Source: Acidobacteriota bacterium (GTDB lineage Bacteria; Acidobacteriota; Vicinamibacteria; Fen-336). From it: DNA of 64,000 nucleotides. The translations under genes were made by a program, and so were the position numbers. The stretch covers positions 1,912-65,911 of the forward strand of contig QHVM01000023.1 of NCBI GenBank assembly GCA_003223555.1. Direction: 5' to 3'. Below, piece after piece: positions 23,170 to 52,651 of the stretch (position 1 is the stretch's first letter; every line of letters starts with the position of its first letter). Under the pieces are notes generated by a model. It saw only the letters and a list, made by a program, of their open reading frames with translations, was not told the DNA's origin and made no database searches.

Positions 23170-23229
23170 GGAATCGGGGCGGGCACGGCAACGCCGAGCG
23201 GGGGGCATCTTGCGGTCGCCCGGCCGCGA

Positions 23230-35781: not shown

Positions 35782-35881
35782 AGACGCCGTATTGTGGCAC
35801 ATGCCGGCGGAGCACGGTCCGCCGGTTGGGTTTTGCCGGGTCCCGGATTAACCTTGGCGCGGAGGCCCTCCGGCGGGCACT

Positions 35882-36658
35882 ATGACGCTGGCCGTCTTCT
35901 ATTCCTTCGCCCGCTCGGGCGGCACGCTGGTGAACCGGTGCCTGGGCGCCATCCCCGGCAACCTCGTCCTCTCCGAGGTCAACCCCCACGGGGCGTTGGT
36001 GCCGGTCGAGGTGCAGGCCCGGGACTGGCTGGGCCTGGTCGGGCCCGGGGAGTTCGAGATCCTGGCCGGGAAGGGCTACGGGGCGAAGATCCGATGGCTC
36101 AGCGAGGCGGCCGCGAATCAGGGCCGCCACCTGGTGGTGCGCGACTGGCCGGCCCTGAACTTCCTGTCCGGGCTGTTCTCCGAATACTTCCAGCCCAGCC
36201 TGCTCCTGGAGCAGCAGCTGTACCTCACGCGCCACGGCCTGGCCCCTCCCTCGGCCGTGGTAGCGCGGCGCGGCGCCGCCGTCTACGAATCGGTGGTCCG
36301 CACGTTCGACCACCTGCGGGACCTGACGGCGGAGGCGTTCGGCGCCGCCTACCTCGCCTATGCGCGGGTCATGGACGGACGCCCGGTGATCCGCTTCGAG
36401 GAGTTCTGCCGCGAGCCGCAGCGGGAGCTGGCCAGGCTCTGCGGGTGGCTGGGCATCGCCTATTCCGATGGCTTCCTCGAGGGGTTCCCCGCCTTCGACC
36501 GGTGCACGGGGGACAACCGCGTCTCCGTGTCCTCCCGGGCCGGCAGCTCCGAGCGCATCGAGGTGCTCCCGGAGAATCGCGGCTCTCCGGCCTGGGTCGC
36601 GGCGGCCCGCGACCCGGCGTGCCGTGAGGCGGATCAGGTGTTCGGCTATGCCGACTGA
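35882..36658 (+). CDS. putative Stf0-type sulfotransferase
   Basis: N-terminal FYSFARSGGTLVNRCLG resembles the PAPS 5'-phosphosulfate-binding loop (xxRSGST) of Stf0-family sulfotransferases; RDWPALNFLS is a possible 3'-PB motif; coding-like composition. Confidence 0.5.
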   Translation: MTLAVFYSFARSGGTLVNRCLGAIPGNLVLSEVNPHGALVPVEVQARDWLGLVGPGEFEILAGKGYGAKIRWLSEAAANQGRHLVVRDWPALNFLSGLFSEYFQPSLLLEQQLYLTRHGLAPPSAVVARRGAAVYESVVRTFDHLRDLTAEAFGAAYLAYARVMDGRPVIRFEEFCREPQRELARLCGWLGIAYSDGFLEGFPAFDRCTGDNRVSVSSRAGSSERIEVLPENRGSPAWVAAARDPACREADQVFGYAD

Positions 36659-36998
36659 CCGGCCGGGGCAGGGGCAAGAGACGGGGTCGGCCTCCGACGA
36701 GGCCCTGTGGAGGGTGATCGAATCCCGTGATCGGGCCTTTGCCAAGGCCCACCGCACCGTCGTCGACAAGGAGGAGGAGATCCATCGGCTGAAGGCAGCC
36801 GCCACCGAGAAAGACCGTGAGATCACGCGACTGAAGCGGGAGGCCGACTGCAAGGACGATGAGATCCAGATGCTGACGCGGGCCGCCGCCGAGCGACTGG
36901 GCATCATCCAGCAACTGCAGGCTTCCCGCGAGTACAAGGCCGGCCTGACCCTCCTCCACCCGTGGCAGGCGCTGCGGAGGAAGCTCCATGCCGGGTGA
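36648..36998 (+). CDS. small coiled-coil protein, tandem paralog A
   Basis: MPTDRPG...ALWRVIESRDRAFAKAH...KDREITRLKREADCKDDEIQMLTRAAAE...EYKAGLTLLHPWQALRRKL; shares ~50% identity and its 11-nt overlap junction with paralog B. Confidence 0.5.
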   Translation: MPTDRPGQGQETGSASDEALWRVIESRDRAFAKAHRTVVDKEEEIHRLKAAATEKDREITRLKREADCKDDEIQMLTRAAAERLGIIQQLQASREYKAGLTLLHPWQALRRKLHAG

Positions 36999-37377
36999 CG
37001 CTGGCGCCGCCGGCCGTCCGAAGGGAGGACCACTCATGGCGACGGCTCCCGACGAGACCCTCTGGAGCCTCATTGAGTCGCGCGATCGCGCGTTCGCGAA
37101 GGCCCACGAGGCCTTTCAATCGTTGACGTGGCAGGCGGGCCAGAAGGACGAGGAGATCGCCCGGCTCAAGCAGGAGGCCGACCGCAAGGACGAGGAGATC
37201 CATATGCTGACCCGGTCGGCCGACGAGTGGCAGGTCCTCGTCCGGGAACTGGAGGCTTCCTGGGAATACAAGCTGGGCCTGATGCTCCTGCACCCGTGGG
37301 CCGTGGTGAGGCAGAAGGTCTCCGCGGACCCTCAGCGCACCCGCCACTTCCGCCCCACCCAGAACAGCCGCAGGTAG
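36988..37377 (+). CDS. small coiled-coil protein, tandem paralog B
   Basis: MPGDAG...TLWSLIESRDRAFAKAH...KDEEIARLKQEADRKDEEIHMLTRSADE...EYKLGLMLLHPWAVVRQKV; conserved relative to A. Confidence 0.5.
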   Translation: MPGDAGAAGRPKGGPLMATAPDETLWSLIESRDRAFAKAHEAFQSLTWQAGQKDEEIARLKQEADRKDEEIHMLTRSADEWQVLVRELEASWEYKLGLMLLHPWAVVRQKVSADPQRTRHFRPTQNSRR

Positions 37378-38108
37378 CCCGCGATGGTGCGCGCGATGCG
37401 CATCTTGCTCTGGCCGGCCCGCAGCGAGCCGTCGAGGGGCATGGCCACCTCGGAGATGGTGGCCCCGACCTGGATGAGCTTGGCCAGCAGCTCGACCATG
37501 CACTCGAAGCCGGGCGTCTCGAGGATCGCGGGGCCGTACCGTGTCTGGAGGCGCTTCAGGACGGGCGCGCTGTAGAGCCGGAAGAACGAGCTCATCGTGA
37601 GGATGCCGTGGATGCCCAGCAGCTCCTTGATCAGGCTGTTCGCCCCATGGCTCAGGAACACCCGCAGCGGCGTGTTGTTGGTCATGCCGCCCCCGTACAT
37701 GTAGGGGCTGGCCAGTACGACCTCGAAGCCCTCCCGGCGCCGCACGAGCATCTGCTGGAGCGTGTCGATGCGCGAGGTGTTGTCCCCCTCCATGGTGGCA
37801 ACCCAGTCGGCCTCGGCCAGGCGCGGCGCCAGGTGGGCGAAGCCGGTTCCGAAGGCGCGGCCCGGCCCCAGGTTCCTCTCGTGCCGGAGCACCTCGACGG
37901 CCAGGCTGCCCTTCTCCTCACGGATCTTCTCCCCCGTGCCGTCGGTGCTGCCGTCGTCGATGAAGACCGCCGCGCATTGCATCTGCCCGACCAGGCCCTC
38001 CTCCAGGCGGCGGAAGCCCGCGAGCAGCCGGGCGACGTTGGGCGACTCGTTGAGCAGAGGGACCAGGACGTAGAGGTGCGGCGGCTGGCCGCGACCCGCC
38101 TGGGTCAA
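37332..38108 (-). CDS. GT2 polyprenyl-phosphate glycosyltransferase (DPM1/ArnC-like, no TM tail)
   Basis: LYVLVPLLNESPNVARLLAG...AVFIDDGSTDGTGE...; TTG start in a TTGA overlap with the upstream decarboxylase gene. Confidence 0.7.
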   Translation of the reverse strand: MTQAGRGQPPHLYVLVPLLNESPNVARLLAGFRRLEEGLVGQMQCAAVFIDDGSTDGTGEKIREEKGSLAVEVLRHERNLGPGRAFGTGFAHLAPRLAEADWVATMEGDNTSRIDTLQQMLVRRREGFEVVLASPYMYGGGMTNNTPLRVFLSHGANSLIKELLGIHGILTMSSFFRLYSAPVLKRLQTRYGPAILETPGFECMVELLAKLIQVGATISEVAMPLDGSLRAGQSKMRIARTIAGYLRLFWVGRKWRVR

Positions 38109-39124
38109 CGCTCGTCCTCGAGGGTGAATCCCGGGTTGGCCTGCCGGATCTCCTCGAGGTGCTCGCGGAACCATTCCACCTGCCGGCGCATCCCCTCGCC
38201 GACGTCGATCCGCGGCCGCCAGCCGAGCAGGCATTCGGCCTTGCCGATGTCCACCGTGCGCTGGCGGGGGTCCTCGTAGCCGCGGGAGAAATCCGTATAA
38301 GGCACGAAGCGGAGCCGGGGCCTCGTGCGCGCGCCGGCCAGGCGCCAGACGAGATAGGCCAGGTTCACGATGCTGAGATGGTCGGCCGCCCCCACGTTGA
38401 CGACCTCGCCCTCCGCGTACGGAGCCTCGAGGACGCGGAGGGTGGCCTCCACCGCGTCCGAGACATGGGCGAAGGGGCGCGTCTGGGTGCCGTCGCCATG
38501 GATCGGCATCGGCTGGTCGGTCAGGGCCGCATGGATGAAGATGTCCTGGGGCCCGGACAGCCTGGAGAGCTGGTAGGTCGGTCCATAGATGCCGGAGTAG
38601 CGGACGATCGAGACGGGGACGCCGTGCGACTCGGCGTACGCGAAGCACAGGTGCTCGCCGTAGACCTTGGACACCGCGGAGGCCCAGCGGTTGATCTTCG
38701 AGTCACCCAGCACGAGCGTGCTCTCCTCGCTGAAGCGGGGATCCGGGTTCTTCCCGTACACGTCGTCGGTGGAGGCGAACAGCATGCGTGCCCCGTGGCG
38801 GCGCGCGCACTCCAGCACCACCTCGGTGCCCCTGCCGTTGACTTCCAGCGTGGCCAGGTACCCGGTGTAGCGCGGGATCTTCAGGGCAGCCAGGTGGACG
38901 AGGGTGGAGGCGCCGGCGGTGAGCCTCTCCATCGATCCGAGGTCCCGGACGTCGGCCTCGTGGAAGCGGAACGAGGGATGCTCGACGCACGACGCTAGGT
39001 TGACCCGGCGGCCCTGGGAGAGGTCGTCCACTCCCACGACCTCGTGCCCCTTCTCCAGCAGGGCGCGCGCGAGATGGGGCCCGATGAGGCCGGCGACGCC
39101 GGTGACCACGCCCCGCTCGCTCAG
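38105..39124 (-). CDS. SDR NAD-dependent epimerase/dehydratase, UDP-glucuronate decarboxylase (UXS / ArnA C-domain)-like, paralog 2
   Basis: VVTGVAGLIGPHL...HLAALKIPRY...KINRWASAVSKVYGEHLCFAYAE (cf. ArnA KRWIYSVSKQLLDRVIWAY); probable CTG start in a CTGA overlap (an alternative GTG lies 15 nt downstream). Confidence 0.75.
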   Translation of the reverse strand: MSERGVVTGVAGLIGPHLARALLEKGHEVVGVDDLSQGRRVNLASCVEHPSFRFHEADVRDLGSMERLTAGASTLVHLAALKIPRYTGYLATLEVNGRGTEVVLECARRHGARMLFASTDDVYGKNPDPRFSEESTLVLGDSKINRWASAVSKVYGEHLCFAYAESHGVPVSIVRYSGIYGPTYQLSRLSGPQDIFIHAALTDQPMPIHGDGTQTRPFAHVSDAVEATLRVLEAPYAEGEVVNVGAADHLSIVNLAYLVWRLAGARTRPRLRFVPYTDFSRGYEDPRQRTVDIGKAECLLGWRPRIDVGEGMRRQVEWFREHLEEIRQANPGFTLEDER

Positions 39125-40107
39125 GACGCCGTCCCTTCCCGCGCCGTCACCGCCCGCTGCCACTCCACGGTGCGGCGCAGGCCCTCGTCGAGGTCGACCC
39201 GGGGCGTGAAGCCGAGCCGATCCCGGGCCTTGGCGATGTCGGGCACCCGGTGCCGCACGTCTTCGTACCGGCCGAAGGTCTGATACGAGACCCGCTTGAC
39301 CTTCGGCTCGCCGCGTCCGGCCAGGCGCCATACCTTCTCGGCCAGGGCCTGGATCGTGACCGGCCGCGTGTCCCCGAGGTTGAAGATCTCCCCCACCGCC
39401 CGCTCCTCGAACATCGCCCGGACGATACCGTCCACGGTGTCGTCGACGTAGGTGAAGCTGCGCGTCTGCTGGCCGTCGCCGTGCACTTCCATCGGCTGGT
39501 CGCGCAGGGCGGCGTCGATGAACACCGCCTGCGGTCCCCCCCACCAGGTGCGGTTCTGGCCGGGCCCGTAGGACCCGAAAAGGCGGAGGACGATGACCGG
39601 CACGCCGCGCTCCTGCTGATAGGCGAAGCAGAGGTGCTCGTCGAAGATCTTGGACGTGGCGTAGGCCCAGCGCTTCACGCTGGTCTCGCCCAGGTAGAGG
39701 TCGTTCGTCTCCGCGAAGGGCAGGTGCGGGCTCTTGCCGTACACGTCGGAGGTGGAGGCGAGGACGAGCCTCGCCCCGACCCGGGCGGCCGCCTTCAGCA
39801 TCGACTCGGTGCCGTGGGTGTTGACGAGGAGGGTGTCGAGGGCGTTGCCGTAGCGGGGGATCTTGAAGGCGGCCAGGTGCACGACCACGGTGGCGCCGGC
39901 GGCCAGGCGCTGCATGGCCGCCCCGTCGCGAACGTCCTCGCGCACGAACCGGAAGCTCCGGTGCTCGACGAGCGGCTCCACGTTCAGCATGGTGCTCTGG
40001 GAGAGGTTGTCGATGCCGCAGACGGCATGGCCACGCTCGAGGAGCGCGCGGCTCAGGTTCGAGCCGATGAAGCCCGCCGCCCCGGTCACCACGATGCTCT
40101 CGGTCAT
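39121..40107 (-). CDS. SDR NAD-dependent epimerase/dehydratase, UDP-glucuronate decarboxylase (UXS / ArnA C-domain)-like, paralog 1
   Basis: MTESIVVTGAAGFIGSNL...HLAAFKIPRY...SVKRWAYATSKIFDEHLCFAYQQ. Confidence 0.8.
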   Translation of the reverse strand: MTESIVVTGAAGFIGSNLSRALLERGHAVCGIDNLSQSTMLNVEPLVEHRSFRFVREDVRDGAAMQRLAAGATVVVHLAAFKIPRYGNALDTLLVNTHGTESMLKAAARVGARLVLASTSDVYGKSPHLPFAETNDLYLGETSVKRWAYATSKIFDEHLCFAYQQERGVPVIVLRLFGSYGPGQNRTWWGGPQAVFIDAALRDQPMEVHGDGQQTRSFTYVDDTVDGIVRAMFEERAVGEIFNLGDTRPVTIQALAEKVWRLAGRGEPKVKRVSYQTFGRYEDVRHRVPDIAKARDRLGFTPRVDLDEGLRRTVEWQRAVTAREGTAS

Positions 40108-40131
40108 GCCGTCTCCGGGCGCGCCGCCGCC

Positions 40132-41343
40132 TCAGGCCAGCGACAGCTCCGCGAGCTGGAAGGTCAGGCGGCGGGGGTCCTCGCCGCCCGAGGCGGCGGG
40201 GACGAAGCAGCGGTTCATCCGCAGGGTGATCTCGAGCATGGGCGCCTCCGGCACGCCCGGCGGCAGGGGCACCTCGATCTCGAAGGGCCGGCTCCGGGTG
40301 AGGTCGAACCGGAGGAGGTACCTTCCGTTGAAGAGCACCTCGGCCCGGAGGGGCAGCACGCGCTCCGGTGAGCATTGCGCGGTGCCGGCGAAGCGCAGGC
40401 GCGTCTTGCCGCGCCAGTCCGGGAAGAGGAAGTATGCGCGGTCGGAGAGCCAGCGGTCCGGATAGGGGCTGGGCGGGAAGAGCCGGCTCAAGCGGCCGAA
40501 GATGAGGTTCGCCCCGAGGCTGCGCACGGACCGGCCCAGCCGCCGGAAGGCCGGGCGGTCCAGCCAGGGCAGGTCCCGCCGGATCCTCTCGCCCATCGCC
40601 GCCTGGTAGGCGTCCCACCCGTAATTGAAGTAGGCGGGAGGGAAACGGCGCCTCCCGTGGCGGCGCATCATCGACGCCAGCTCGGAGAAGCGATGCAGCC
40701 CGCCGGAGAAGGTCTTGGCGGCGGCATATTCCCTGAGGTTGCCCAGAAACTCGGGGATATATGCGATCTCGAAGCGCTTGGCAACCCGGATCCAGAAGTC
40801 CCAGTCCATCCCGTAGTGGAGCGATTCGTCGAGCATGCCCACCGCGTCGAAGACGCACCGGCGCCAGAACGCCGTCTGCTGCAGGATGTAATCGCTGAAG
40901 TAGACGAGCCGCCAGAGGCTGAAGGGCTCGGTGGACGGAAAGCGGCGGGTGACCCGGCCCGCCTCGTCGAGGAGGTATCCCTCCCCGTAGACCATCGCCA
41001 CATCGGGGCAGGCCCGCAGGTACGCGACGGCCTTGGTGACCGCTCCCGGCACGTAGGTGTCGTCGGAGTTGAGCCAGGAGACGATCTCGCCCCTGGCCAT
41101 CCGGAAGCCCTTGTTGATGGCCTCGGACTGGCCCCCGTCCGGCTCGGATATCCACCGCAGCCGTCCTTCGTGGCGGCGCAGGACCTCCAGCGTCTGGTCG
41201 GTCGATCCTCCGTCGACCACGATGTACTCGAGGTTCGGGTAGTCCTGGCCGAGCACGCTCTGGATGGTGTCCTCGATGAAGCGGCCCTGGTTGTAGGAAG
41301 GCGTGACGATGGAGACCAGCGGAAGGACCTCGGCCTGGGCCAT
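40132..41343 (-). CDS. family 2 glycosyltransferase
   Basis: LPLVSIVTPSYNQGRFIEDTIQSVLGQDYPNLEYIVVDGGSTD. Confidence 0.75.
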   Translation of the reverse strand: MAQAEVLPLVSIVTPSYNQGRFIEDTIQSVLGQDYPNLEYIVVDGGSTDQTLEVLRRHEGRLRWISEPDGGQSEAINKGFRMARGEIVSWLNSDDTYVPGAVTKAVAYLRACPDVAMVYGEGYLLDEAGRVTRRFPSTEPFSLWRLVYFSDYILQQTAFWRRCVFDAVGMLDESLHYGMDWDFWIRVAKRFEIAYIPEFLGNLREYAAAKTFSGGLHRFSELASMMRRHGRRRFPPAYFNYGWDAYQAAMGERIRRDLPWLDRPAFRRLGRSVRSLGANLIFGRLSRLFPPSPYPDRWLSDRAYFLFPDWRGKTRLRFAGTAQCSPERVLPLRAEVLFNGRYLLRFDLTRSRPFEIEVPLPPGVPEAPMLEITLRMNRCFVPAASGGEDPRRLTFQLAELSLA

Positions 41344-41373
41344 GGATTCAGGTGGGTGGGTCCGGCCAGGGGC

Positions 41374-42237
41374 TCAGGGCGCGCTTCCCGCCCCGAGGCC
41401 CCGCTGCGCACGGCGGCCGCGATGATACCACTTGTGGTGCAGGTAGCCGACCGCCTGGTAGAGCCGCCTCCAGCGGGCGGGAGGCCCGAGCCACCGCCCG
41501 GGCCCGGCCGCCATCCGGTCGTGCCACAGGCCGATGAAGTACGTCCGGCCCACCCGGCCGAGCTGCGTCTCGCAGACGGCGAAGATCTCGCGCAGCACGT
41601 CGCGCCGCTCGGCCAGGGTCTTGGCTCCCGGATGCAGGCGCGTGGCGGCGAGGATGCGCGGCAGGTGCTCCAGCCGGCCGCCGGCCCGGGCCAGCCGCAG
41701 CCAGTACTCGTAGTCCATCGCGTAGCGCAGCGCCTCGTTGAACGGCCCCACTCGCCCGGCGACGCGCGAGCGCCAGAAGGCCGCCGGCTGGCAGACGACG
41801 TTCTCCTCCGCCAGGCGCGAGAAGGAGTACTCGGCGGTGGGATAGGCGCCGATGACGCGGTCTTCCTCGTCGACGTAGTCGGCGTCCCCGTAGACGAGAT
41901 CGCATTCCGCGTTCCGGGCCAGGTGCTGCACCACGGCCTCCACCGCGCCCGGCCGTAGCAGGTCGTCCGAGTTGAGGTAGGCGAAGACCTCTCCGTGGGC
42001 CCCGGCAAAGCCGCGGTTCAGCGCGGCGCTCTGGCCGGCGTCGGGCTGCGAGTCCCACCGCAGGCGGTCGCCGTAGGAGCCGAGGATCTCCCGCGAGCCG
42101 TCGGTCGACCCCCCGTCGCAGACGATGTACTCGATGCGCGGATAACCCTGGCCGAGCACGCTCTCGATCGTCCGGCGCAGGAACCGGCCCTGGTTGAACG
42201 ACGGCGTCACGATGGAGACGAGAGGCAGGCCTTCCAT
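41374..42237 (-). CDS. family 2 glycosyltransferase (paralog of 40132-41343)
   Basis: MEGLPLVSIVTPSFNQGRFLRRTIESVLGQGYPRIEYIVCDGGSTD; ATG shares its A with the upstream TGA (TGATG). Confidence 0.75.
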   Translation of the reverse strand: MEGLPLVSIVTPSFNQGRFLRRTIESVLGQGYPRIEYIVCDGGSTDGSREILGSYGDRLRWDSQPDAGQSAALNRGFAGAHGEVFAYLNSDDLLRPGAVEAVVQHLARNAECDLVYGDADYVDEEDRVIGAYPTAEYSFSRLAEENVVCQPAAFWRSRVAGRVGPFNEALRYAMDYEYWLRLARAGGRLEHLPRILAATRLHPGAKTLAERRDVLREIFAVCETQLGRVGRTYFIGLWHDRMAAGPGRWLGPPARWRRLYQAVGYLHHKWYHRGRRAQRGLGAGSAP

Positions 42238-43454
42238 CAGCCCTCTCGCTGCGCCGTCCTCAGGAGCGTTCCCGGCGCGGCCCGCACCGACGCCAGTCGC
42301 GCGTAAGCGGCCAGGATGCGCGGGATCACGGCCGGCCAGCGAAAGCACTCCGCCCGTTGCGTTCCCCGGCCGGCCAGCTCGGCCCGGCGCGCGTCGCTGC
42401 TCCAGACCTCCGCCACCGCGCCGGCGATGTCTTCGGGCCGCCGGGGATCGAAGTAGCGCACCGCCTCCCCGCCCACCTCGGGCAGCGCCGCCGTCCGGGC
42501 GCAGGCCACCGGGCAGCCGCACGCCATCGCCTCCAGCACGGGCATGCCGAAGCCTTCGAAGAGCGACGGAAAGACGAGGACCCGGGCGGCGCGATACAGG
42601 GCCGGCATGTCTTCTTCGGCGACGAAGCCCAGGTCGCGGACCTGTTCGGGCCGCAGCCCGGCCTCCCTCGCCAGCGCGGCCACCGAGCGTCGTTCGCCTT
42701 CGAGCCGTCCCGTGCAGACGAGCGGCACGACCAGGGAGCGCTGCCGGGCAAGGCCGGCCAGGGCGGCCAGGAGCCGGGCGTGGTTCTTGTGGGGCCAGGG
42801 ATTCGCCGGATACAGCGCGAAGTCTCCGCCCGGCAGGCCGTACCGCGATTCGAGACGGCCGCGCTCCCCCGGCTCTTCGCGCGGCCGGAAGCGGCCGGAG
42901 ATCCCGACCGGCACGACGACGATCTTCTCCCCCGGCGTCCCGTAGCGGGAGGTCAGGCTGCGGGCGGTGAACTCCGAGGGCACGAGCACCAGGCGGGCCT
43001 GGCCGACGCCTCGCCGGTGGGCCACGGCGCGGCCGATCCGCTCCCGGAGGGGAAAGAAGCCGGGGTGGAACTCTTCCTGCATGTCGAAGAAGGTCAGCGC
43101 CACCGGCGTCTGCAGGTCGAGAGGCGGCAACCGCGTGGTCGCGAAATGAAGGAGGTCCAGGCCGAGGCCGTCGATCTCCGCCGCCCGCGGATGCGGGGCC
43201 GGCGGCCAGCCGAGGGCGAACCGCAGCAGCTCCGGCAGCGGGCGCCGCCGCGGAGCCGGAGCCTGGAGGCGGGCGGCCGAGAAGCGCGGCGAGGCGGGCA
43301 GGGGCGGGCTCTCTTCCGCCCGGGAGCAGAAGACGACGTACTCGTGGCCGGGGGCGTCGGCCTCCGCCAGGGCTCGCAGCAGCTCGCGGAGGTAGACCTG
43401 CAGCCCTCCCACCTGGCCGAGGCCGTAGCCGGACCCGCTGATCCCGATGCGCAT
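42237..43454 (-). CDS. GT4 family glycosyltransferase
   Basis: ...HKNHARLLAA...VLVFPSLFEGFGMPVLEAMACGCPV (Glycos_transf_1). Confidence 0.75.
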   Translation of the reverse strand: MRIGISGSGYGLGQVGGLQVYLRELLRALAEADAPGHEYVVFCSRAEESPPLPASPRFSAARLQAPAPRRRPLPELLRFALGWPPAPHPRAAEIDGLGLDLLHFATTRLPPLDLQTPVALTFFDMQEEFHPGFFPLRERIGRAVAHRRGVGQARLVLVPSEFTARSLTSRYGTPGEKIVVVPVGISGRFRPREEPGERGRLESRYGLPGGDFALYPANPWPHKNHARLLAALAGLARQRSLVVPLVCTGRLEGERRSVAALAREAGLRPEQVRDLGFVAEEDMPALYRAARVLVFPSLFEGFGMPVLEAMACGCPVACARTAALPEVGGEAVRYFDPRRPEDIAGAVAEVWSSDARRAELAGRGTQRAECFRWPAVIPRILAAYARLASVRAAPGTLLRTAQREG

Positions 43455-43479
43455 CAGCCTCGAGCCTGGAACGAGTGAC

Positions 43480-44061
43480 TCACTCCCGGGCGAAACTCAG
43501 CGCTCCCTCGTGCAGGCGGTAGGTCGTCCCGCACACGCTGCACCGGACGGTCTCCTCCGCGACGTCGAGCTTGACGCCGCACCGGCACATCCATCCCGTG
43601 AGGCGGGCCGGATTGCCCACCACCAGGGCGAAGTCGGGCACGTCGCGCGTCACCACCGCCCCCGCCCCCACGAAGGCGTAGACGCCGATGGTGACGCCGC
43701 AGACGACGGTGGCGTTGGCGCCGATCGAGGCTCCCCGGCGGACGAGCGTGCGCCGGTACTCGTCCCGCCGCACCACCTCCGCGCGGGGGTTCACCACGTT
43801 GGTGAAGACCATCGACGGGCCGCAGAAGACCGCGTCCTCCAGGATGACGCCGGCGTAGAGGCTGACGTTGTTCTGGATCTTGCAGTCGTCGCCCACCCGC
43901 ACGCCCGGCGAGACGAACACGTTCTGGCCGATGTTGCACCGCTTGCCGATCACGCTGTCGCCCATGACGTGGCAGAAGTGCCAGATCTTCGTCCCCTCCC
44001 CGATCTGGCACGGCTCGTCGACGAGGCTGGTCTCGTGGACGAAGTAGGGCTTGTCGCTCAC
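43480..44061 (-). CDS. left-handed beta-helix sugar N-acetyltransferase (WbpD/WlbB-like) with C-terminal Cys4 ribbon
   Basis: Hexapeptide repeats ...[32 protein letters not shown]... and C-terminal WMCRCGVKL...CSVCGTTY; GTG start in a GTGA overlap. Confidence 0.75.
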
Positions 44062-45050
44062 AGCCGCACCGGCCGGCCACCCTCCTCGACGGAGCGCTGG
44101 CAGGCCTCCAGCACCCGCAGCACCTTCAGGCCGTTCAGGCCGTCCGTGCGCGGGGTGCGCCGGGTGCGCACGCACTCCACGAAGTGGGCGAGCTCCTCCC
44201 GCAGCGGCTCCATCTCCGGGAAGAACAGGGTCGACTCCGCGGTCTGCCGGATGACCGGTTCCCCGTCCTTCCAATCGATCCCCTTGTCGAAGATCTTGAG
44301 CTTGCCCTCCTTGGCCACGTCGTCGAACACCCCCATCTTGCGGCTGCCGATCACCACCAGCTTCTGCTCCTTGAAGGGGTGGAGCCAGCTCACGAAGATG
44401 TGGGCCCGCAGCCGGCCCGGGAAGGCCAGGCAGGTCATCGTCACGTCGGCGATGTCGTGCTGGAGGTAGCTCTGACCGCTGGTGGAGGCCCACTCCGGCA
44501 TGGCGCCGGTCAGGAGGAGGATGACCGAGATGTCGTGGGGGGCGAAGCTCCAGAGGATGTTCTCCTCCTTCCGCACCTTGCCCAGGTTGAGGCGGTTCGA
44601 GTAGACGTAGTGGATCTCGCCCAGCTCGCCCGCGTCGACGAACTCCTTCAGCTTGCGCACCGCGGGGTGGTACTCGAGGACATGGCCGACCATCAGCACC
44701 CTCTTCTCGCGCTCGGCCAGGGCCACCAGCTCCTCGGCCTGGGGCACTTGCAGGGCCAGGGGCTTCTCCACGAAGGCGTCCTTGCCGGCCAGCATCACCT
44801 TCTTGGCCAGTGCGTAGTGCTGATCGGCCGGCACCGCCAGCGCCACCGCCTGCACCCGGGGATCGGCCAGGGCGCGGCCGATGTCGGAGAGGGCGTCGAC
44901 GCCCTTGTAGCTCGCCCGCACGCCGTCCAGCACCGCCGGGTTGGCGTCGACGACCGAGACGAGGTGCCCCATCTGGTGGAGGTTCCGGACGAGGTTCTTC
45001 CCCCAGTAACCGCACCCCGCGACCGCCACCCCTACCGCCGGCGACGCCAC
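44058..45050 (-). CDS. Gfo/Idh/MocA family oxidoreductase (WbpB-like UDP-sugar 3-dehydrogenase candidate)
   Basis: [19 protein letters not shown]...FVEKPLA...; full-length GFO_IDH_MocA N- and C-domains. Confidence 0.8.
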
Positions 45051-46010
45051 CTACTTGAGGCCCTTGTTGTGCTCCATGTCCATCCACATGGCGAAGAAGA
45101 GCATCTGCATCCCCATGATGAGGCAGAAGGCGTCGAAGATCGCCGCGTTGGGTGAGAGCGCCCCCACGCTCAGCCGCAGGAAGATGAGGTAGGCGCCGAA
45201 GAGCAACCCGCCCCCCACCAGGAACAGCCCGAAGGCGAGGAAGAACACCAGGGGGTGGAAGTCCCGGATGATGTACTTCTCCTTCATCCGCCAGAAATAG
45301 CACTTGACGAGAAGCCAGGACAGGCTGGGCACGACCCGCGGCAGTCTCATGCCCGACACCTCGCCGATGTTGTAGACGGGGCGGATCGGCACGTCGCGCA
45401 CCCGGAAGTCGTAGTTGTTCAGCTCCACCAGCAGGTGGTTCGGGAAGCCGTAGCGCTTGTAGAGCCGGTCCAGGTGCAGCACCCGTAGGGCCTCGATCGT
45501 GATCGCGGTGTAGCCGGACTGACTGTCGGCGACGTGCCAGTAGCCCGAGGCGACCTTGGTCAGGAACGACAGCCCCGCGTTGCCCAGGTAACGGTGCCGC
45601 GGGATGATCTGCCACGCCTCGCCGGTGAAGAGGCGGTTGCCCTTGGTGAAGTCCGCCTCGTTCCTGACCAGCGGGGCCAGGATCTTCGGCAGGTCCTCGG
45701 GGTCCATCTGCGCATCGCCCGCCATCACCGCCACCAACGCGTTCTCGGACGGCGCCTCCTCCATCACCGCCTTGTAGCCGGACACGATGGCGCCCCCCAC
45801 GCCCGCGTTCCGCTCGTGCCGGATGACCCTCAGGCGGCAGCCGATCCGGTCATGGCACGCGCCGAGGACCCGGCCGGTCTCGTCGCTCGATGCATCGTCG
45901 ACGACCACGATGCGGTCGACGAGGGAGGGCATCGTGTCGAGCACCCTCCCGATCAGCTTCGCCTCGTTGTACGCGGGGACCACCACGGCCACCCAACGGC
46001 CCTCGAGCAT
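45051..46010 (-). CDS. GT2 polyprenyl-phosphate glycosyltransferase with C-terminal TM anchor (GtrB/ArnC-like)
   Basis: [21 protein letters not shown]...[12 protein letters not shown]...; two C-terminal TM helices. Confidence 0.8.
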
Positions 46011-46146
46011 CAGATTCGAGCACGGCGCGCTTCGCGCGCCTGAACGCCGCGTCCGCGGTCGGGCGCTTCCATCAAGCTTCCGCCCTCGCGGGAATGAATC
46101 CCGCTCGGGCGGGCAGGTGGCCCGACCGCGGTCGCGACATGGGCGG

Positions 46147-47589
46147 CTATTCTAGCTCGTAGACCCGCAGTTCCGAGGAATCGCGATACCGGAGCCGGAA
46201 CCGCCCGCGCTTCTCGAGTTCCTCGGGACCGGCGATGCCGAAGGAAAGGAAGTCTCCCGGGGCGATGAAGACGTGGGTGAGGCCATAGAGCCCGCCCAGC
46301 TTGCCGAGCGCGCGGCCCCGCAGGACCTTGTCCTCGGCGCGGTCGCGGCGGTCATCGTCGTCGGCCACGAGGAGGGTCGGAGCCCTCAGCACCCGGCGGC
46401 CCCCGAGGACCGCGATCTCGGGCGCGTAATCGGGGCTGGCCAGGAAGACCGACGAAGAAGGGGTCTCTCGACGCACCCAGGCCATGGCGGTCCGCAGCCG
46501 TTCCGCGATCGGCTCGCGGCTCTCGTCCATCAGCCGGTCGGTCCGGGTGGGAGTCCACCAGGTGAGGAAGCACGTCGGCGCGCCGGCCAGGACGAGCAGA
46601 GCGGGACTGAGCGAGGCCGGGGCGAAGCCGGCCAGCGCGCGGCGCCGGCCGAGCACGGCCGCCGCCTGCCTCAGCAGCGACGACAGGGGCTGCGCCGAGG
46701 CCAGGAGCAGGCCGAAGCGGTAGAAGGACTCGCTCCCCCACCCGTCGATCCCCAGGGGAAGCGCGCTCAGCAGGACGAGCGCCGCGCCCCCGAGGATCAA
46801 GGCCCGGCCTGCGGGAGCGAGGCGCGGCCAGCCCCAGGCCGCGAGCAGGCACCAGGGCACCTGGTCCAGCGTCAGCAGCAGCGTGGCGTCGGCGAGTCCG
46901 AGGCCCTCGGAGGCGCCATGGACGACGAGCCACGACGCCATCGCCGCGGCGCCGAGGCCGGTCGCGACCACTTCCCGGACGGCCAGACGGCCGAGGACGA
47001 GCGTCGCGGCCATGATCAGCAGGAGGAGCAACGCCGAGCCGGGATGGGCCCACAGGCCGGGGACGAAGCCCACGCCGCGGGCGGCGTCGAGGTCTCCGGT
47101 CGAGAACAGCAGGCACAGCGTCGCCGCCACCGGCGCGTCCTCGCGCCGCGGCCACAGCGAATGCACGAGGACCCCGAGGACGGGAAGGACCAGCAGCGGC
47201 AGCAGCGTCGGCCACAGGAGCAGCCACGCTGCGGGTCTCAGCCACGTCGCGGCCGGGATCCAGGCCTCGGCCGCGGGCGGCACGTCCACGAGAAAGCCCT
47301 GGCCGGGTGGGGCGCCCGCCGCGGCCACCGACATGTCGGCCGCCCGGCGGGTGAGCGCGGCGTCGAGGAACAGCCCGTAGGGTCGTCCGAGGGCCAGCAC
47401 CCAGAAGCCTTCGGCGGCCAGCACGAAGGTCACCCCGGCCAGCAAGGAGAGACCCGGACGCGACCGCCCCGCGGCGAGCACCCACAGGAGGGCGAGCGCG
47501 AGCAGGAGGTAGCGGAGCAGGCCCGCATGCAGCGCGGGGTCAGGCACCCCCTGCGGCACGCCCAGCAGCTCCCCCGCCCGGAGAATCAA
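46147..47589 (-). CDS. large polytopic membrane protein with C-terminal extracytoplasmic domain (candidate GT-C-type glycosyltransferase)
   Basis: >=10 hydrophobic segments followed by a soluble ~120-aa tail (...VFIAPGDFLSFG...RVYELE); TTG start in a TTGA overlap; paralogous to 47586-49319. Confidence 0.55.
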   Translation of the reverse strand: MILRAGELLGVPQGVPDPALHAGLLRYLLLALALLWVLAAGRSRPGLSLLAGVTFVLAAEGFWVLALGRPYGLFLDAALTRRAADMSVAAAGAPPGQGFLVDVPPAAEAWIPAATWLRPAAWLLLWPTLLPLLVLPVLGVLVHSLWPRREDAPVAATLCLLFSTGDLDAARGVGFVPGLWAHPGSALLLLLIMAATLVLGRLAVREVVATGLGAAAMASWLVVHGASEGLGLADATLLLTLDQVPWCLLAAWGWPRLAPAGRALILGGAALVLLSALPLGIDGWGSESFYRFGLLLASAQPLSSLLRQAAAVLGRRRALAGFAPASLSPALLVLAGAPTCFLTWWTPTRTDRLMDESREPIAERLRTAMAWVRRETPSSSVFLASPDYAPEIAVLGGRRVLRAPTLLVADDDDRRDRAEDKVLRGRALGKLGGLYGLTHVFIAPGDFLSFGIAGPEELEKRGRFRLRYRDSSELRVYELE

Positions 47590-49319
47590 GACTCGCGCTT
47601 CTTCACTCGGTAGATGGCAACGTAGTCGCCGTCGGGGTCGCCGGTGAAGAAGACGCTCTGGAGATGCCGCTGCGCGCCGATGCGGCCGAGGTCGGTGCCG
47701 GAGTAGTACGTACTCAAGAGATAGGGGGTCACCACCAGGTAGCGCACTCCGTAACGGGCGGCGGCGGCCACGGCCGCCTCCGGATCCGGGCCGGCGACCA
47801 GCATCCCCTGCAGCCGCCACCTCTCGTCCCAGTCACGGGGCAGGGGCAGCGTGAGGCCGACGAGCGCCCGCCGGCCGGCGAGGGCCGCGACGTACCGCGC
47901 GAAGTCCGGGTCTCCGGCGATCACGTCCTGCGGCGCGGTCTGCCCGCGGATGAAGTCCGTGGCTTGCCGCAGCGGCGCCGCCAGCGGGGGGAGCGAGAGC
48001 GTGAAGTAGCCGTCCATCGATGCCGGGTTCCACCAGTAGGGCAGCGTGAAGGGCAGGAGCAGCGCTCCGAGCGCCGCGGCCCGGATCGCGGGCGCCACCG
48101 GCGGCCGGGCCAGCCATGCCGCCGCCCGTCCTCCGAGGTCCCAGCACCCGATGCCCGCGACCGCGGCCAGGAGGAAAGCGTTCCAGTAGTAGATCTCGTC
48201 GCGCTCGCGCGCGAGCTGAAGCGCGCTGAGGACGTAATAGGCCAGCCACAGCGCGAGGCCGCCCACCACCTGCGCCGCCCACAGCCGGCTGAGCCGGTCG
48301 CCGCGCCGCAGCAGGACGACGAGCCCCCACAGCCCGAGCCAGAAGACGAAGCCATGCCGGAAGGTCACCTCCATGAGGTGGGCGGAGGCCGGGTCGAGGG
48401 TCATGAGCGGGCTCCGGGTGAACGCCGGATAGCCGGCCACCAGCATGACGAGGTACGGGCTCACGACGAGGAGGTTGACCCCGATCACGACCGCGGAGTC
48501 CAGCGCGTCCCGCCGCGCCTCGCCCGGCCATCGCAGCATCGACAGGGCCGTGAACGCGGCCAGACCGACCACGAGGTAGAACATGTGGAGGACGAAGACC
48601 CAGCCCATCACGTGGAGGAGGAGACCGGTCACGAGCCGGCCGCGCCAGGTGCGGATGCTGGCGAAGGCCCTCAGCACGATCGGCAACATCACGAGTCCGA
48701 GAGCGTGGTTGGGCTTGAGGAGGAAGGTCATGGCCCACGGCACCCGGTATGGGCGGGTGGAGTCGAAGGGCATCGAGCACAGCAACGTCGCGAAGCCGGC
48801 GGCGAACACGGCTTCCCAGCGGCGGCCGCCCCTCTCCCCCGGGCCCGGCCGGAGCCCGAGAGAGATGGACACCGCGAGGGCCGCCATCATGATCAGCGAG
48901 AACCAGGGATACAGGCGAAGGACGCGCTCCACGTTCCAGCCCGAGACGGCCGCCACCAGCAGGCCCCAGAACGGCTCGAAGTGCATCTGGCCCACCTGCC
49001 AGGTCTGGAGGGGCGGGTTGCCGGCGGCCACGACCTGGCAGAGCGCGACGTTTCCCACCCGGTCACGGCTGGGGCCGAACGCGTAGATCCGCTGCAGGGG
49101 GTAGTTGGTCTCCAGCCATGCGAACGCGTTGGCGGCCACGATCCCGGCCAGCAGCCACCCGGCGCGGCGGATGCGAAGGAGAGCCCCGAGCCACAGCAGG
49201 CCCAGGAGCGGGTAGAGATGGCGGGCGGTGGCGAGGAACGCAGGCACGTCCAGGCCGTGGACGTCGATGCCCAGGAAGTTGGTGCCCGCGTCGCCCAATC
49301 GCCCGAGATCGTACTCCAT
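47586..49319 (-). CDS. large polytopic membrane protein with C-terminal extracytoplasmic domain, paralog (candidate GT-C-type glycosyltransferase)
   Basis: MEYDLGRLGDAGTNFLGIDVHG... many TM segments ...YLVVTPYLLSTYYSG...YVAIYRVKK; start at the ATG at 49319. Confidence 0.6.
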   Translation of the reverse strand: MEYDLGRLGDAGTNFLGIDVHGLDVPAFLATARHLYPLLGLLWLGALLRIRRAGWLLAGIVAANAFAWLETNYPLQRIYAFGPSRDRVGNVALCQVVAAGNPPLQTWQVGQMHFEPFWGLLVAAVSGWNVERVLRLYPWFSLIMMAALAVSISLGLRPGPGERGGRRWEAVFAAGFATLLCSMPFDSTRPYRVPWAMTFLLKPNHALGLVMLPIVLRAFASIRTWRGRLVTGLLLHVMGWVFVLHMFYLVVGLAAFTALSMLRWPGEARRDALDSAVVIGVNLLVVSPYLVMLVAGYPAFTRSPLMTLDPASAHLMEVTFRHGFVFWLGLWGLVVLLRRGDRLSRLWAAQVVGGLALWLAYYVLSALQLARERDEIYYWNAFLLAAVAGIGCWDLGGRAAAWLARPPVAPAIRAAALGALLLPFTLPYWWNPASMDGYFTLSLPPLAAPLRQATDFIRGQTAPQDVIAGDPDFARYVAALAGRRALVGLTLPLPRDWDERWRLQGMLVAGPDPEAAVAAAARYGVRYLVVTPYLLSTYYSGTDLGRIGAQRHLQSVFFTGDPDGDYVAIYRVKKRES

Positions 49320-49380
49320 GACCTGGCGCGGCGAGGGGGCTGCTAGAATGGCCGGCCGCTTCCATCGGGCGGCCGCCACC

Positions 49381-50211
49381 ATGATCCGCGCGGTTTGCGC
49401 CGCCGTCCTCGCGCTCGGCGCCGTCAGCGCCGACAGCGCGCCGGCCCTGCTGCCGGACGCCTCCGTGCGCCTTCAGGCCGCGCGATACGCGCCCGCCGAG
49501 ACCGACATGCACTGGCTCGGCTGGATCGGCGCCGGCGCCGGCCTGCTGGCGATCGACAAGGTGACCGCGTACCTCACGGCCGACGTCGAGACGATCATCG
49601 GCAACACGCGCCGGGCCTTCGACGCCACCCAGGCCAACTACCACCTCGAGCCCGGGCTGCGCGGAAGCCTGGGCGGAGGACGGGAGGCGACGCTGTTCTT
49701 CCATCACGTCTCGCGTCACCTGGTGGACCGGGCCAAGGCGGAGGCCGTGGACTGGAACATCCTCGGCCTGCGGTTCGCGGGACGCCGGCGGGGGCGGGTC
49801 CCCGTGGGCTTCGCGGCCAGCCTCGGTCACGCGACGCTCGCCTCGCTCGTCGGCTACCGGTGGGAAGCGACGGGGCACGTCGACGCGGCGATCGTTTCCG
49901 GCGAGAAGGCGGAGGCCTACGTGGCGGGCGACGCCCGTTTCGTCACCGTGGAGCGCTCGGCGGCGTTTCCCCGCGGTGATTTCCTGGACCGGTCGGCCGA
50001 GGCGGGCGCGCGCTGGCGCCGGGACGGGCGCACGCTGCAGACGTTCGTGGCCTGGGAGCGGCGCAACGACGTCTTCGTGGAGACCCCGGGCGCGCGCTCC
50101 CGGGCGCTCATCGGCTTCCGGATCCTATTCAATTCGGGGGGGTACAGAGCGGACGAAAGCACCCCCCCGCGCGCATTCGCGCTTTCCCCCCGGTCGCTCA
50201 CTCGGGAGTGA
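49381..50211 (+). CDS. secreted hypothetical protein, possibly an outer-membrane beta-barrel
   Basis: Signal peptide MIRAVCAAVLALGAVSA; alternating amphipathic beta-strand-like segments; last ~25 codons lie inside repeat copy 1. Confidence 0.5.
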   Translation: MIRAVCAAVLALGAVSADSAPALLPDASVRLQAARYAPAETDMHWLGWIGAGAGLLAIDKVTAYLTADVETIIGNTRRAFDATQANYHLEPGLRGSLGGGREATLFFHHVSRHLVDRAKAEAVDWNILGLRFAGRRRGRVPVGFAASLGHATLASLVGYRWEATGHVDAAIVSGEKAEAYVAGDARFVTVERSAAFPRGDFLDRSAEAGARWRRDGRTLQTFVAWERRNDVFVETPGARSRALIGFRILFNSGGYRADESTPPRAFALSPRSLTRE

Positions 50212-50331: not shown

Positions 50332-50748
50332 CTACGAGCGCTTGTCGACGGCGCGGGCGAGCACGCTGCGCAGCTGGGCCTCGGCCGCCTTGCGCACCTC
50401 CATGTGGCGGCTCTCCACCACCAGCCGCTCGAGATACACGAGGTCCTCGGCCCGGTTCATGACCCGGACGAGGATCTGGCCGATGTGCCGGTCGCCGGAA
50501 TGGTCCTTGAGCAGCTCCGCGTCCCGGATCCGCTTGGCCGCCTCCTGGCGGATGAAGAAGTGCCGGTCGCTGCGCACGACCTCCATGAGCAGCGCGTCGG
50601 CGTCGTGCTCGGGACCCAGCGCCTCGATCCGGAAGAGCAGATCGTCGTCGCTCAGGGCCAGCCAGCCCGCAGCGCCTCCCCCGGTGCCCTCCGGCCCTTC
50701 CTTCCAGGGCCGCCGACGCGCCGAATCGTCCTCATCCACCGAAGTCAT
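50332..50748 (-). CDS. hypothetical protein (alpha-helical, possibly HEAT-like)
   Basis: Coding-like composition; last gene of the plsC-DUF4388-PilZ operon. Confidence 0.45.
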   Translation of the reverse strand: MTSVDEDDSARRRPWKEGPEGTGGGAAGWLALSDDDLLFRIEALGPEHDADALLMEVVRSDRHFFIRQEAAKRIRDAELLKDHSGDRHIGQILVRVMNRAEDLVYLERLVVESRHMEVRKAAEAQLRSVLARAVDKRS

Positions 50749-50793
50749 TTCCTCTGGAGGAGACCTGATTCTAGTCCACGGCCGACGGCGGGG

Positions 50794-51147: not shown

Positions 51148-51148
51148 C

Positions 51149-52617: not shown

Positions 52618-52651
52618 GCCGCGGCGCTTCCGCTAATGGCGGCCGCGGTGT

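Follow-up and report, generated by a model that had tools for sequence, protein, structure and literature searches.

Three-component glycosylation systems consist of a synthase for a polyprenyl-phosphate sugar, a flippase that moves this sugar, and a GT-C glycosyltransferase that glycosylates an already completed glycan in the periplasm (PMC11127046). Examples are GtrA/GtrB/GtrC of Shigella and Salmonella and ORF15/14/12 of Citrobacter (GT136). An epimerase of the short-chain dehydrogenase/reductase (SDR) type can act on the lipid-linked sugar within such a system, the precedent being ORF13, which epimerises ribofuranose linked to undecaprenyl phosphate (PMC11127046). Envelope glycans have hardly been studied in Acidobacteria, which abound in soil. 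We analysed a 64-kb stretch of DNA (contig QHVM01000023.1; "the window" is this whole stretch) from a Vicinamibacteria-like acidobacterium, in which the genes between 49319 and 37332 form a co-directional minus-strand row within a large locus for cell-surface glycan. A protein encoded in the region has 100% identity to a hypothetical protein from an Acidobacteria metagenome-assembled genome, and its relatives carry the annotation Vicinamibacteria. We consider it probable that this row serves extracytoplasmic glycosylation from lipid-linked monosaccharides, with its parts present twice over. Most likely it is a known kind of system in which two GT-C enzymes of an undescribed family, G16 and G15, are what is new. 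An earlier note on this DNA (the original prediction) had called the system undescribed; this was overstated, since periplasmic glycosylation by a GtrB-type synthase and a GT-C enzyme is established and widespread (PMC11127046). The operon extends that scheme and overturns no current understanding.

The row shares with the three-component systems a candidate polyprenyl-phosphate sugar synthase and a GT-C enzyme, a setting in a surface-glycan locus with an ABC exporter, and an auxiliary SDR that may alter the sugar (PMC11127046). It differs in that synthase and GT-C enzyme are each encoded twice in the window, in that the GT-C proteins lie outside the described families and in that no flippase gene was detected alongside them. 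The Citrobacter synthase is a phosphoribosyltransferase, whereas the candidate synthases here, G14 and G6, are family 2 glycosyltransferases (GT2s). Genes were called by analysis of G+C at third codon positions (GC3) and inspection of start codons, because the high G+C content (~70%) gives rise to many spurious open reading frames (ORFs). Assignments come from Pfam, NCBIfam and PDB sequence searches, and labels of the type L001-L167 denote the contigs or loci of relatives that were compared with the window.

G16 and G15 matched no Pfam or NCBIfam model, and the only sub-threshold matches were to DUF6798, Dpy19 and DUF6044. Modelled from alignments of 36 and 42 homologs, the predicted structures (G16, pLDDT 87.1, pTM 0.88; G15, pLDDT 92.5, pTM 0.89) have the GT-C superfamily fold, with a polytopic transmembrane (TM) core and extracytoplasmic loop helices. 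AftA was the best structural match for both proteins and also the longest. The paired structure-comparison values were 23.7 (496 residues aligned) and 13.9 (407 residues aligned) for AftA, 22.4 and 8.8 for AglB, 21.2 and 10.8 for STT3B, 18.6 and 8.6 for ALG12, 17.3 and 10.1 for ArnT, 16.5 and 9.4 for PglB, and 16.2 and 10.8 for Pmt4. The G16 and G15 families are homologous over 468 columns, their full length (hhalign probability 99.8%, E 6e-28), and G15 lacks ~100 residues of membrane-helix insert that are present in G16. The predicted fold thus bears out the GT-C nature that had been proposed for the two paralogous membrane proteins. Fold and profile evidence together rule out a Wzx/Wzy identity: neither the Wzy_C and Polysacc_synt profiles nor the fold of a Wzy polymerase, O-antigen ligase or Wzx flippase was found in them.

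AftA (GT85; 8if8), a decaprenyl-phosphate-arabinofuranose:galactan arabinosyltransferase, has, outside its GT-C core, a further two TM helices at the N terminus, and its C-terminal periplasmic domain is of alpha/beta type; its catalytic Asp128 is held by Arg132 in the first long loop (extracellular loop 2, ECL2) after TM1-2 (PMC10265970). In the models, G16 and G15 also start with two helices ahead of the GT-C core, with an Arg-rich turn between them, followed by a long loop with short helices, and they share the C-terminal alpha/beta periplasmic domain. Both families have a conserved acidic residue in this first long extracytoplasmic loop, as placed by predicted secondary structure: D86, R87 and E115 are invariant in G16, and in G15 position D76 is acidic in 95% of sequences and T80 and R81 are conserved. 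As far as the models show, the likeness to AftA is architectural. Sequence identity is 13%, neither protein matched the AftA_N or AftA_C profile of GT85, the host is non-mycobacterial, and genes of the decaprenyl-phosphate arabinose (DPA) pathway (UbiA-type phosphoribosyltransferase, DprE1/E2) are absent.

Profiles of the other described families gave no match either. We found no PMT or PMT_2 match (GT83/ArnT and GT39/PMT), and no STT3, PglB or Wzy_C Pfam signal even at E <= 10. After their last TM helix the GT-C proteins have only an invariant W-W-[D/N]-P motif, at the place comparable to that of the WWDYG motif of STT3/PglB/AglB (GT66), which it recalls. The G15/G16 family has few members (390 cluster representatives among 1.84 billion at E <= 1e-3), and those that are distant have no Pfam assignment above cut-off. 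On these data, G16 and G15 are GT-C enzymes of an unclassified family, outside those described. Being small, structurally clear and linked by synteny to a donor-synthase partner, the family is a tractable candidate for a new CAZy family.

The two putative donor synthases both carry a full Pfam GT2 domain, a GT-A domain with an acidic D-x-D-like motif that is nearest to DPMS and ArnC (DDASSDET and GDAQMD in G14; DDGSTDGT and EGDNTS in G6). G14 has TM helices at ~247-278 and 290-308, in all two or three C-terminal TM segments, and its closest PDB match is PfDPMS (5mlz, 1.4e-10), followed by GpgS and ArnC. G6, which has no TM helix, is also closest to PfDPMS (1.2e-9 over residues 12-256, beyond the catalytic core) and then to ArnC. 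The names that NCBIfam returned for the two proteins were AglJ, PpgS, PgfS and ArnC, with AglJ, PpgS and ArnC the best for G14. All scores were far below cut-off (AglJ 78 against 325, PpgS 50 and 33 against 370, ArnC 29.5 against 529). Together, the PfDPMS and ArnC matches and the C-terminal helices of G14 indicate two GT2s of the DPMS/ArnC/GtrB kind, an indication of type and not of orthology, and they agree with the two polyprenyl-phosphate glycosyltransferases of the original prediction. In PpgS/Rv3779 (mycobacterial galactosamine on arabinogalactan) and FlmF2/FlmK (Francisella galactosamine on lipid A), a small GT2 reportedly makes a polyprenyl-phosphate N-acetylhexosamine (HexNAc), an SDR epimerase is said to supply the UDP-HexNAc and a GT-C enzyme to transfer the sugar. 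Our locus differs from these: G6 matches PpgS only weakly (33 bits, cut-off 370), and no deacetylase was seen.

Comparison with relatives connects these parts. Four independent Acidobacteria-like contigs (the window, L001, L166 and L167) have the genes in the order G16-G15-G14 at one and the same genomic place; L002 keeps G15 next to G14, with G16 three genes further on. Usually the three genes are followed by a Gfo/Idh/MocA oxidoreductase gene (G13 in the window), a hexapeptide acetyltransferase gene (G12) and an asparagine-synthase-like gene. Across these contigs G14, G13 and G12 are 74-87% identical, and the GT-C proteins 44-63%.

The other end of the row, in which two SDR genes (SDR_A and SDR_B) precede G6, is joined to GT-C genes in relatives. 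A single co-directional row in L088 holds SDR_A, SDR_B, G6, a UDP-N-acetylglucosamine (UDP-GlcNAc) 2-epimerase, a G15-like GT-C protein, a HexNAc dehydrogenase and a G16-like GT-C protein. L096 has the same order up to the dehydrogenase, within which the contig ends, and both dehydrogenase copies are 79-81% identical to that of the window. In L089, G14, G13 and G12 lie just upstream of the SDR_A-SDR_B-G6 row, and L161 has the dehydrogenase in one gene row with SDR_A, SDR_B and G6. This gene order suggests a joint function of the SDRs, G6, the dehydrogenase and the GT-C proteins, for which the L088-type row is the strongest evidence. The window lacks the cassette epimerase and the interleaved GT-C gene of L088 and L096 and has two plus-strand genes at that site instead. 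They encode a sulfotransferase-like protein of 258 aa (Pfam Sulfotransfer_3, E 3e-4) and a 129-aa coiled-coil protein, and the pair looks like a local rearrangement or replacement. We rejected the only Epimerase_2 protein of the window as the missing cassette epimerase: it is 41-43% identical to the L088/L096 copy and lies beside FnlA- and FnlB-like genes, in an FnlABC-like context.

The SDR-GT2 pair extends well beyond these relatives. Among metagenome SDR loci with enough downstream sequence, 35 of 51 have a single SDR with TSD and YxxxK motifs directly followed by a G6-like GT2. Of the 23 loci of at least 9 kb, seven also encode a UDP-GlcNAc 2-epimerase and three a 6-dehydrogenase. Distant genomes (a 3.5-Mb genome and a Kiritimatiellae metagenome-assembled genome, MAG) have the UDP-GlcNAc 2-epimerase, SDR_A, SDR_B and a G6-like GT2 with overlapping stops and starts. 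In L007, L008 and L014 a Gfo/Idh/MocA oxidoreductase takes the place of the SDR beside the epimerase and the G6-like GT2, and in L134 a WbpB-like gene, a WbpD-like gene, the epimerase and the SDR stand in a row. The pair occurs in Acidobacteria-like, Polyangiaceae, Kiritimatiellae and many unassigned metagenome contigs. More distant G6-like GT2s of bacteria and archaea (Pirellulales, Chloroflexia, two archaeal MAGs) lie beside recognised GT-C genes (PMT_2 or GT87) or adjoin an LPG_synthase_TM protein. Synteny in so many independent contigs shows that the arrangement is not due to chance, and the widespread pair of TSD-type SDR and DPM1-like GT2 points to an uncharacterised lipid-linked sugar donor.

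From the GT2s, the GT-C genes and the neighbours of G6 relatives, we therefore infer that polyprenyl phosphate is loaded with a sugar, which a GT-C enzyme then transfers outside the cytoplasm. In the scheme that we propose, the donors, lipid carrier, topology, acceptor and all of the chemistry are read from the gene content, folds, motifs and synteny that we observed. Cytoplasmic enzymes would first tailor UDP-HexNAc sugars. The membrane-anchored G14 and the soluble G6, as GT2s of the DPMS/ArnC/GtrB type, would load the products onto undecaprenyl phosphate; SDR_A, a UXS/ArnA-like 4-oxidising SDR, would work with the coupled G6 and with SDR_B, which lacks the catalytic Tyr. After flipping, the AftA-like paralogs G16 and G15 would transfer the sugars at the outer face of the inner membrane, and the acceptor is probably a polysaccharide or lipopolysaccharide (LPS).

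Several observations weigh against this scheme. No flippase candidate (GtrA/SMR, MATE or LPG_synthase_TM) was detected in the 64-kb window, and a six-frame search of the window gave no GtrA-like small membrane ORF. G6 has no TM helix, and the NCBIfam equivalog scores of the GT2s and the SDRs are all far below cut-off. A WlbB-like route is encoded without its aminotransferase within 64 kb. Among 80 species-representative genomes, G15/G16 homologs stood beside G6-like genes in no contig outside the Acidobacteria-like ones.

The original prediction had drawn on the logic of the Arn pathway, which places 4-amino-4-deoxy-L-arabinose (L-Ara4N) on lipid A, and of Gtr systems. What survives of this is the polyprenyl-phosphate sugar followed by GT-C transfer; a true Arn pathway does not. 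As the prediction had noted, the Arn aminotransferase and formyltransferase are absent: Pfam scans of the window found no ArnA formyltransferase domain, ArnB, ArnD or ArnE/F, and tblastn found no DegT-type aminotransferase anywhere in the 64 kb. With formyltransferase, aminotransferase, deformylase and flippase all missing, we rejected the pathway. The row further differs from it in having Asp for a Glu that is invariant in UDP-xylose synthases (UXS), a HexNAc-type dehydrogenase in place of Ugd, and no PMT_2/GT83 match.

SDR_A and SDR_B are both extended SDRs and are 52% identical to each other. The first PDB match of SDR_A is 8vr2 (179 bits, 1.6e-51), an unannotated epimerase/dehydratase for which we found nothing usable in the literature. 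The next is hUXS1 (166 bits, 1.4e-47), the nearest among characterised solved proteins. The dTDP-glucose 4,6-dehydratases scored at most 93 bits and ArnA 79 bits in the same search. NCBIfam was less discriminating: NF008872 and NF005998 stayed below threshold (128 and 101 bits where the cut-off is 294; 83 and 90 where it is 777), and the score for UDP-4-keto-pentose/UDP-xylose synthase (128 bits, cut-off 294) was about equal to that for dTDP-glucose dehydratase (122 bits).

The UXS group is defined by Thr118, Tyr147 and Lys151 together with Ser119, Glu120 and Arg277 (hUXS1 numbering); the Glu and Arg are invariant in the group, and uronate epimerases have Ser and Thr at the same positions (PMC3438964). 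At positions 118, 119, 120, 147, 151 and 277 of the alignment, SDR_A has Thr, Ser, Asp, Tyr, Lys and Arg, and SDR_B has Thr, Asp, Asp, Ser, Lys and Arg. The SDR triad of Thr, Tyr and Lys is therefore complete in SDR_A, whereas SDR_B has Ser for Tyr. In place of the Ser/Glu/Arg of UXS enzymes, SDR_A has Ser/Asp/Arg and SDR_B Asp/Asp/Arg, so that TSD and TDD stand against the TSE of UXS and ArnA. We take ArnA to have Glu at the UXS-invariant position as well (E434). Both SDRs have Gly where hUXS1 and 8vr2 have the Asn of their F-N-x-x-G-P stretch, an Asn on which the hUXS1 paper (PMC3438964) is silent. Among the matches listed, RW.YA.SK is found in 120 of 120 SDR_A homologs and ASTSD[VC]YG in 107 of 120; because of this conservation, the Asp at the UXS Glu position is a family trait and not a lesion. 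SDR_A thus resembles hUXS1, bacterial UXS and UXNAcS in keeping Thr, Ser, Tyr, Lys and Arg, and it differs from them in the Asp, in the Gly and in the Tyr-less paralog that is always encoded beside it in Acidobacteria-like contigs.

SDR_B keeps the glycine-rich NAD motif and the Lys. The YxxxK string that had been quoted for it reads NRWASAVSK, which is SxxxK. True SDR_B orthologs (59-81% identity) are encoded at 16 metagenome loci, and in every one of them the Tyr position holds Gly, Ala, Ser or Leu, and the ortholog in genome L004 has Asp there together with a deletion. The only SDR_B copy that retains the Tyr is that of Kiritimatiellae L005, which has T-D-E and YxxxK, a pattern that we take to be that of dTDP-glucose dehydratases. 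On these alignments, loss of the Tyr is a family trait, and the variability of this catalytic residue argues that the usual redox role has been lost. SDR_B is probably a non-catalytic or altered, non-redox partner of SDR_A, and an obligate Tyr-less paralog of this sort may be a non-catalytic partner (a pseudo-enzyme subunit) in nucleotide-sugar metabolism. The two UXS/ArnA-type decarboxylases of the original prediction do not hold up, given the missing Tyr of SDR_B and its 16 close orthologs and, in SDR_A, the Glu-to-Asp change and scores below all NCBIfam cut-offs. The start of SDR_B is uncertain, with candidates at CTG 39124, GTG 39109 (which removes five codons and cuts into the first beta strand) and GTG 39163. 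In its orthologs a GTGA sequence overlaps the SDR_A stop and supplies the GTG start; the window has CTGA there.

The nucleotide-sugar 6-dehydrogenase near the row bears on what the SDRs could act on. It had been named, as 34447-35781, the UDP-GlcA (UDP-glucuronic acid) source, but it belongs to the UDP-N-acetylmannosamine (UDP-ManNAc)/GlcNAc type and not to Ugd. NCBIfam gave 422 bits for TIGR03026, 284 and 252 for UDP-ManNAc dehydrogenase and 234 for TviB, against 175, 134 and 47 for Ugd-type models. The best PDB matches were 4r16 (237 bits, 3.5e-69) and Cap5O (2.5e-58), against 139 bits for UDP-glucose dehydrogenase. With the HexNAc-type enzymes scoring far better, we rejected the Ugd type; the enzyme is a possible supplier of a HexNAc-uronic acid. 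Since it is of the HexNAc type, any pentose made from its product would be an acetamido-pentose.

G13 and G12 correspond to the WbpB-like and WbpD-like enzymes of the original prediction. G12 is a very close relative of the Bordetella 3-N-acetyltransferase WlbB (3mqg, E 8.2e-67, near full length) and has hexapeptide repeats in PDB and Pfam searches. The best PDB matches of G13 are 3c1a and 7bvj, with 3q2k weaker at 47 bits, and its score for the archaeal UDP-GlcNAc 3-dehydrogenase of NCBIfam (146 bits) is below cut-off. We take 7bvj to be the UDP-GlcNAc 3-dehydrogenase GnnA and 3q2k to be WlbA. The coupling of G14 to the 3-dehydrogenase-like G13 and the WlbB-like G12 points to a 3-acetamido sugar. 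With its WlbB-like acetyltransferase, 3-dehydrogenase-like oxidoreductase and HexNAc 6-dehydrogenase, the window resembles the Wbp/Wlb and GnnA/GnnB pathways. It differs from them in that the aminotransferase (WbpE/WlbC/GnnB) is absent from the 64 kb, so that the set WbpA, WbpB, WbpE, WbpD and WbpI is incomplete, in that the oxidoreductase is nearer to 7bvj than to 3q2k, and in that G13 and G12 are translationally coupled to a GtrB-like GT2. Enzymes of the WlbB type acetylate a 3-amino sugar, yet no sugar aminotransferase is encoded in the 64 kb; one relative has a DegT gene nearby.

Two readings of the SDR_A product compete within this framework. One, plausible though tentative, is that SDR_A keeps C6 and acts as a C4 epimerase or oxidoreductase or as a 4,6-dehydratase on a UDP-HexNAc or UDP-diacetamido sugar, or that it epimerises the sugar on undecaprenyl phosphate after G6, as the SDR epimerase precedent would allow (PMC11127046); the donor would then be a hexose-level amino sugar. 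The partners conserved with the SDR favour this reading, as they are the GT2 (35 of 51 loci) and often the UDP-GlcNAc 2-epimerase (7 of 23), not the dehydrogenase, and so do the oxidoreductase that replaces the SDR in L007, L008 and L014, the L134 row and the T-D-E and YxxxK of the L005 SDR_B ortholog. However, SDR_A as a whole is clearly more similar to UXS than it is to epimerases or dehydratases, its Asp/Arg pair resembles the Glu/Arg of UXS and not the Ser/Thr of uronate epimerases, and the closest relatives have the dehydrogenase within the same operon.

The second reading, possible but doubtful, is that the SDR pair oxidatively decarboxylates a UDP-uronic acid from the dehydrogenase, that G6 places the resulting pentose or 4-keto-pentose, which would be an acetamido-pentose, on undecaprenyl phosphate and that a GT-C enzyme transfers it. 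It would account for the closeness of SDR_A to hUXS1 and 8vr2 (166-179 bits, against at most 93 for dTDP-glucose 4,6-dehydratases), for its conserved Thr, Ser, Tyr and Lys with an Arg aligned to hUXS1 R277 (in epimerases, Ser and Thr replace the Glu and the Arg; PMC3438964), and for the dehydrogenase in the SDR_A-SDR_B-G6 row of L088, L096 and L161. A Bacillus cereus UDP-GlcNAcA decarboxylase that makes UDP-XylNAc is known, as cited in PMC4514872 (its reference 18). Against a pentose stand the Asp at the invariant Glu120 in the 107 of 120 listed family members with the matching motif, the Gly for the F-N-x-x-G-P Asn in both SDRs, the loss of Tyr from SDR_B, the near-equal NCBIfam scores, and the dehydrogenase itself, which is near the SDR in only 3 of 23 large loci and absent within 6-10 kb in L004, L005 and the other 20. 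The pentose decoration of the original prediction is thus not established.

For the activity of SDR_A taken by itself, C4 oxidoreduction or epimerisation with C6 retained is a reasonable but tentative assignment. Oxidative decarboxylation of a UDP-HexNAc-uronic acid to an acetamido-pentose is possible but less readily held, and what is left falls to 4,6-dehydration or action on a lipid-linked sugar. The fullest version of the pentose reading appears unlikely: SDR_A and SDR_B would decarboxylate a UDP-HexNAc-uronic or 2,3-diacetamido-uronic acid to an unknown acetamido-pentose donor, G6 would load it onto undecaprenyl phosphate, and G15/G16, as an AftA-like family new at the CAZy level, would attach it and the lipid-linked amino sugar of G14 to the cell surface. 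It is very unlikely that the GT-C proteins are instead glycan ligases, polymerases or protein oligosaccharyltransferases that use an oligosaccharide linked to undecaprenyl diphosphate, with the GT2s as ordinary repeat-unit glycosyltransferases: the resemblance between W-W-[D/N]-P and WWDYG, the lack of a flippase gene in the window, and the WecA-like initiating transferase and ABC exporter of the locus fit this, but STT3, PglB and Wzy_C gave no Pfam signal, the best and longest structural match is AftA, a user of a polyprenyl-phosphate monosaccharide, G14 with its TM anchor is the invariant neighbour of the GT-C pair, and the alignment of G6 with PfDPMS runs on past the catalytic core to residue 256.

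The genes of the row and the other features of the window are given in Table 1. GC3 analysis and ORF calls confirmed the single minus-strand operon of the original prediction, with intergenic distances of 0-136 nt and four start/stop overlaps, including the TTGA coupling of G6 to the SDRs. Its three additional glycosyltransferases are, by Pfam, two GT2s and one GT4. G16 has a second possible ATG start at 49382. Past G6 come the two plus-strand genes, the dehydrogenase, a Wzz/tyrosine-kinase protein and a WecA-like transferase.

Table 1. Coordinates of the operon genes and of other features in the window
Feature	Position	Strand	Description
G16	47586-49319	-	577-aa GT-C fold protein; AftA-like topology, predicted C-terminal alpha/beta periplasmic domain
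G15	46147-47589	-	480-aa GT-C fold paralog of G16; start overlaps G16 stop
G14	45051-46010	-	Membrane-anchored GT2; putative polyprenyl-phosphate glycosyltransferase, GtrB/DPMS/ArnC type
G13	44058-45050	-	Gfo/Idh/MocA oxidoreductase, UDP-GlcNAc 3-dehydrogenase-like (GnnA/WbpB type); abuts G14 stop
G12	43480-44061	-	WlbB/WbpD-like sugar 3-N-acetyltransferase; start overlaps G13 stop
GT4	42237-43454	-	GT-B Leloir glycosyltransferase; Pfam Glycos_transf_1 and Glyco_transf_4
GT2	41374-42237	-	Soluble, Leloir-type; Pfam GT2, N-terminal half only; no TM helix
GT2	40132-41343	-	Soluble, Leloir-type; Pfam GT2; no TM helix
SDR_A	39121-40107	-	Extended SDR, UXS/ArnA-like; intact TGxxGxxG, T-S-D, YxxxK, Arg
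SDR_B	38105-39124	-	SDR_A paralog; T-D-D, SxxxK
G6	37332-38108	-	Soluble DPM1/PpgS-like GT2; putative polyprenyl-phosphate glycosyltransferase; TTG start overlaps SDR_B stop (TTGA)
Two plus-strand genes	35882-37377	+	Sulfotransferase-like and coiled-coil proteins
Dehydrogenase	34447-35802	-	Nucleotide-sugar 6-dehydrogenase, UDP-ManNAc/GlcNAc type (WecC/Cap5O/TviB-like)
Upstream gene set	50332-53704	-	Conserved upstream of G16-G15-G14
Divergent gene	49228-50211	+	One N-terminal hydrophobic segment; no Pfam family
Glycan locus	8842-29356		Mixed glycan genes
Amidotransferase	25880-27751		Asparagine-synthase-like
ABC-2 exporter pair	21898-24099
FnlA/B/C-like genes	18135-21186		6-deoxy-HexNAc
Epimerase_2	18135-19217		Beside FnlA-/FnlB-like genes
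Amidotransferase	14259-16133		Asparagine-synthase-like
TM protein	4324-5805	-	493 aa, ~11 TM segments; no Pfam family
Wzy_C protein	1112-2704	+	O-antigen ligase/polymerase

The glycan locus mixes exporter, Fnl, amidotransferase, PhyH dioxygenase and methyltransferase genes, and the window encodes further glycosyltransferases. The Wzy_C protein belongs to the same locus, and either it or the 493-aa TM protein could be relevant to what the GT-C enzymes act on. Upstream of the G16-G15-G14 row, the window, L001, L166 and L167 share genes for CarD, HU, a PlsC-type acyltransferase, a DUF4388/PatA_N protein, a PilZ protein and a small soluble protein; having PilZ among these neighbours is a hint that cyclic di-GMP (c-di-GMP) controls the glycan operon. 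In L001 and L167 the position of the divergent gene, beside the G16 homolog, is occupied by a reverse-strand gene for a 264-290-aa protein of no Pfam family; in L002 such a gene lies upstream of G15-G14.

In more distant relatives, large polytopic proteins of no Pfam family flank the SDR/G6-like cassette in L004 (12622-14070, minus strand) and L006 (7032-8843 and 10714-12510, plus strand), and another lies ~5.5 kb downstream of the cassette in L005 (18207-19781, minus strand). They may represent further unclassified GT-C families. An LPG_synthase_TM gene (MprF flippase-type) adjoins the G6-like GT2 in L010 (8873-9907, plus strand), and one lies ~7 kb away in L005 (19898-20911, minus strand); in these organisms its product may be a candidate flippase for the lipid-linked sugar.

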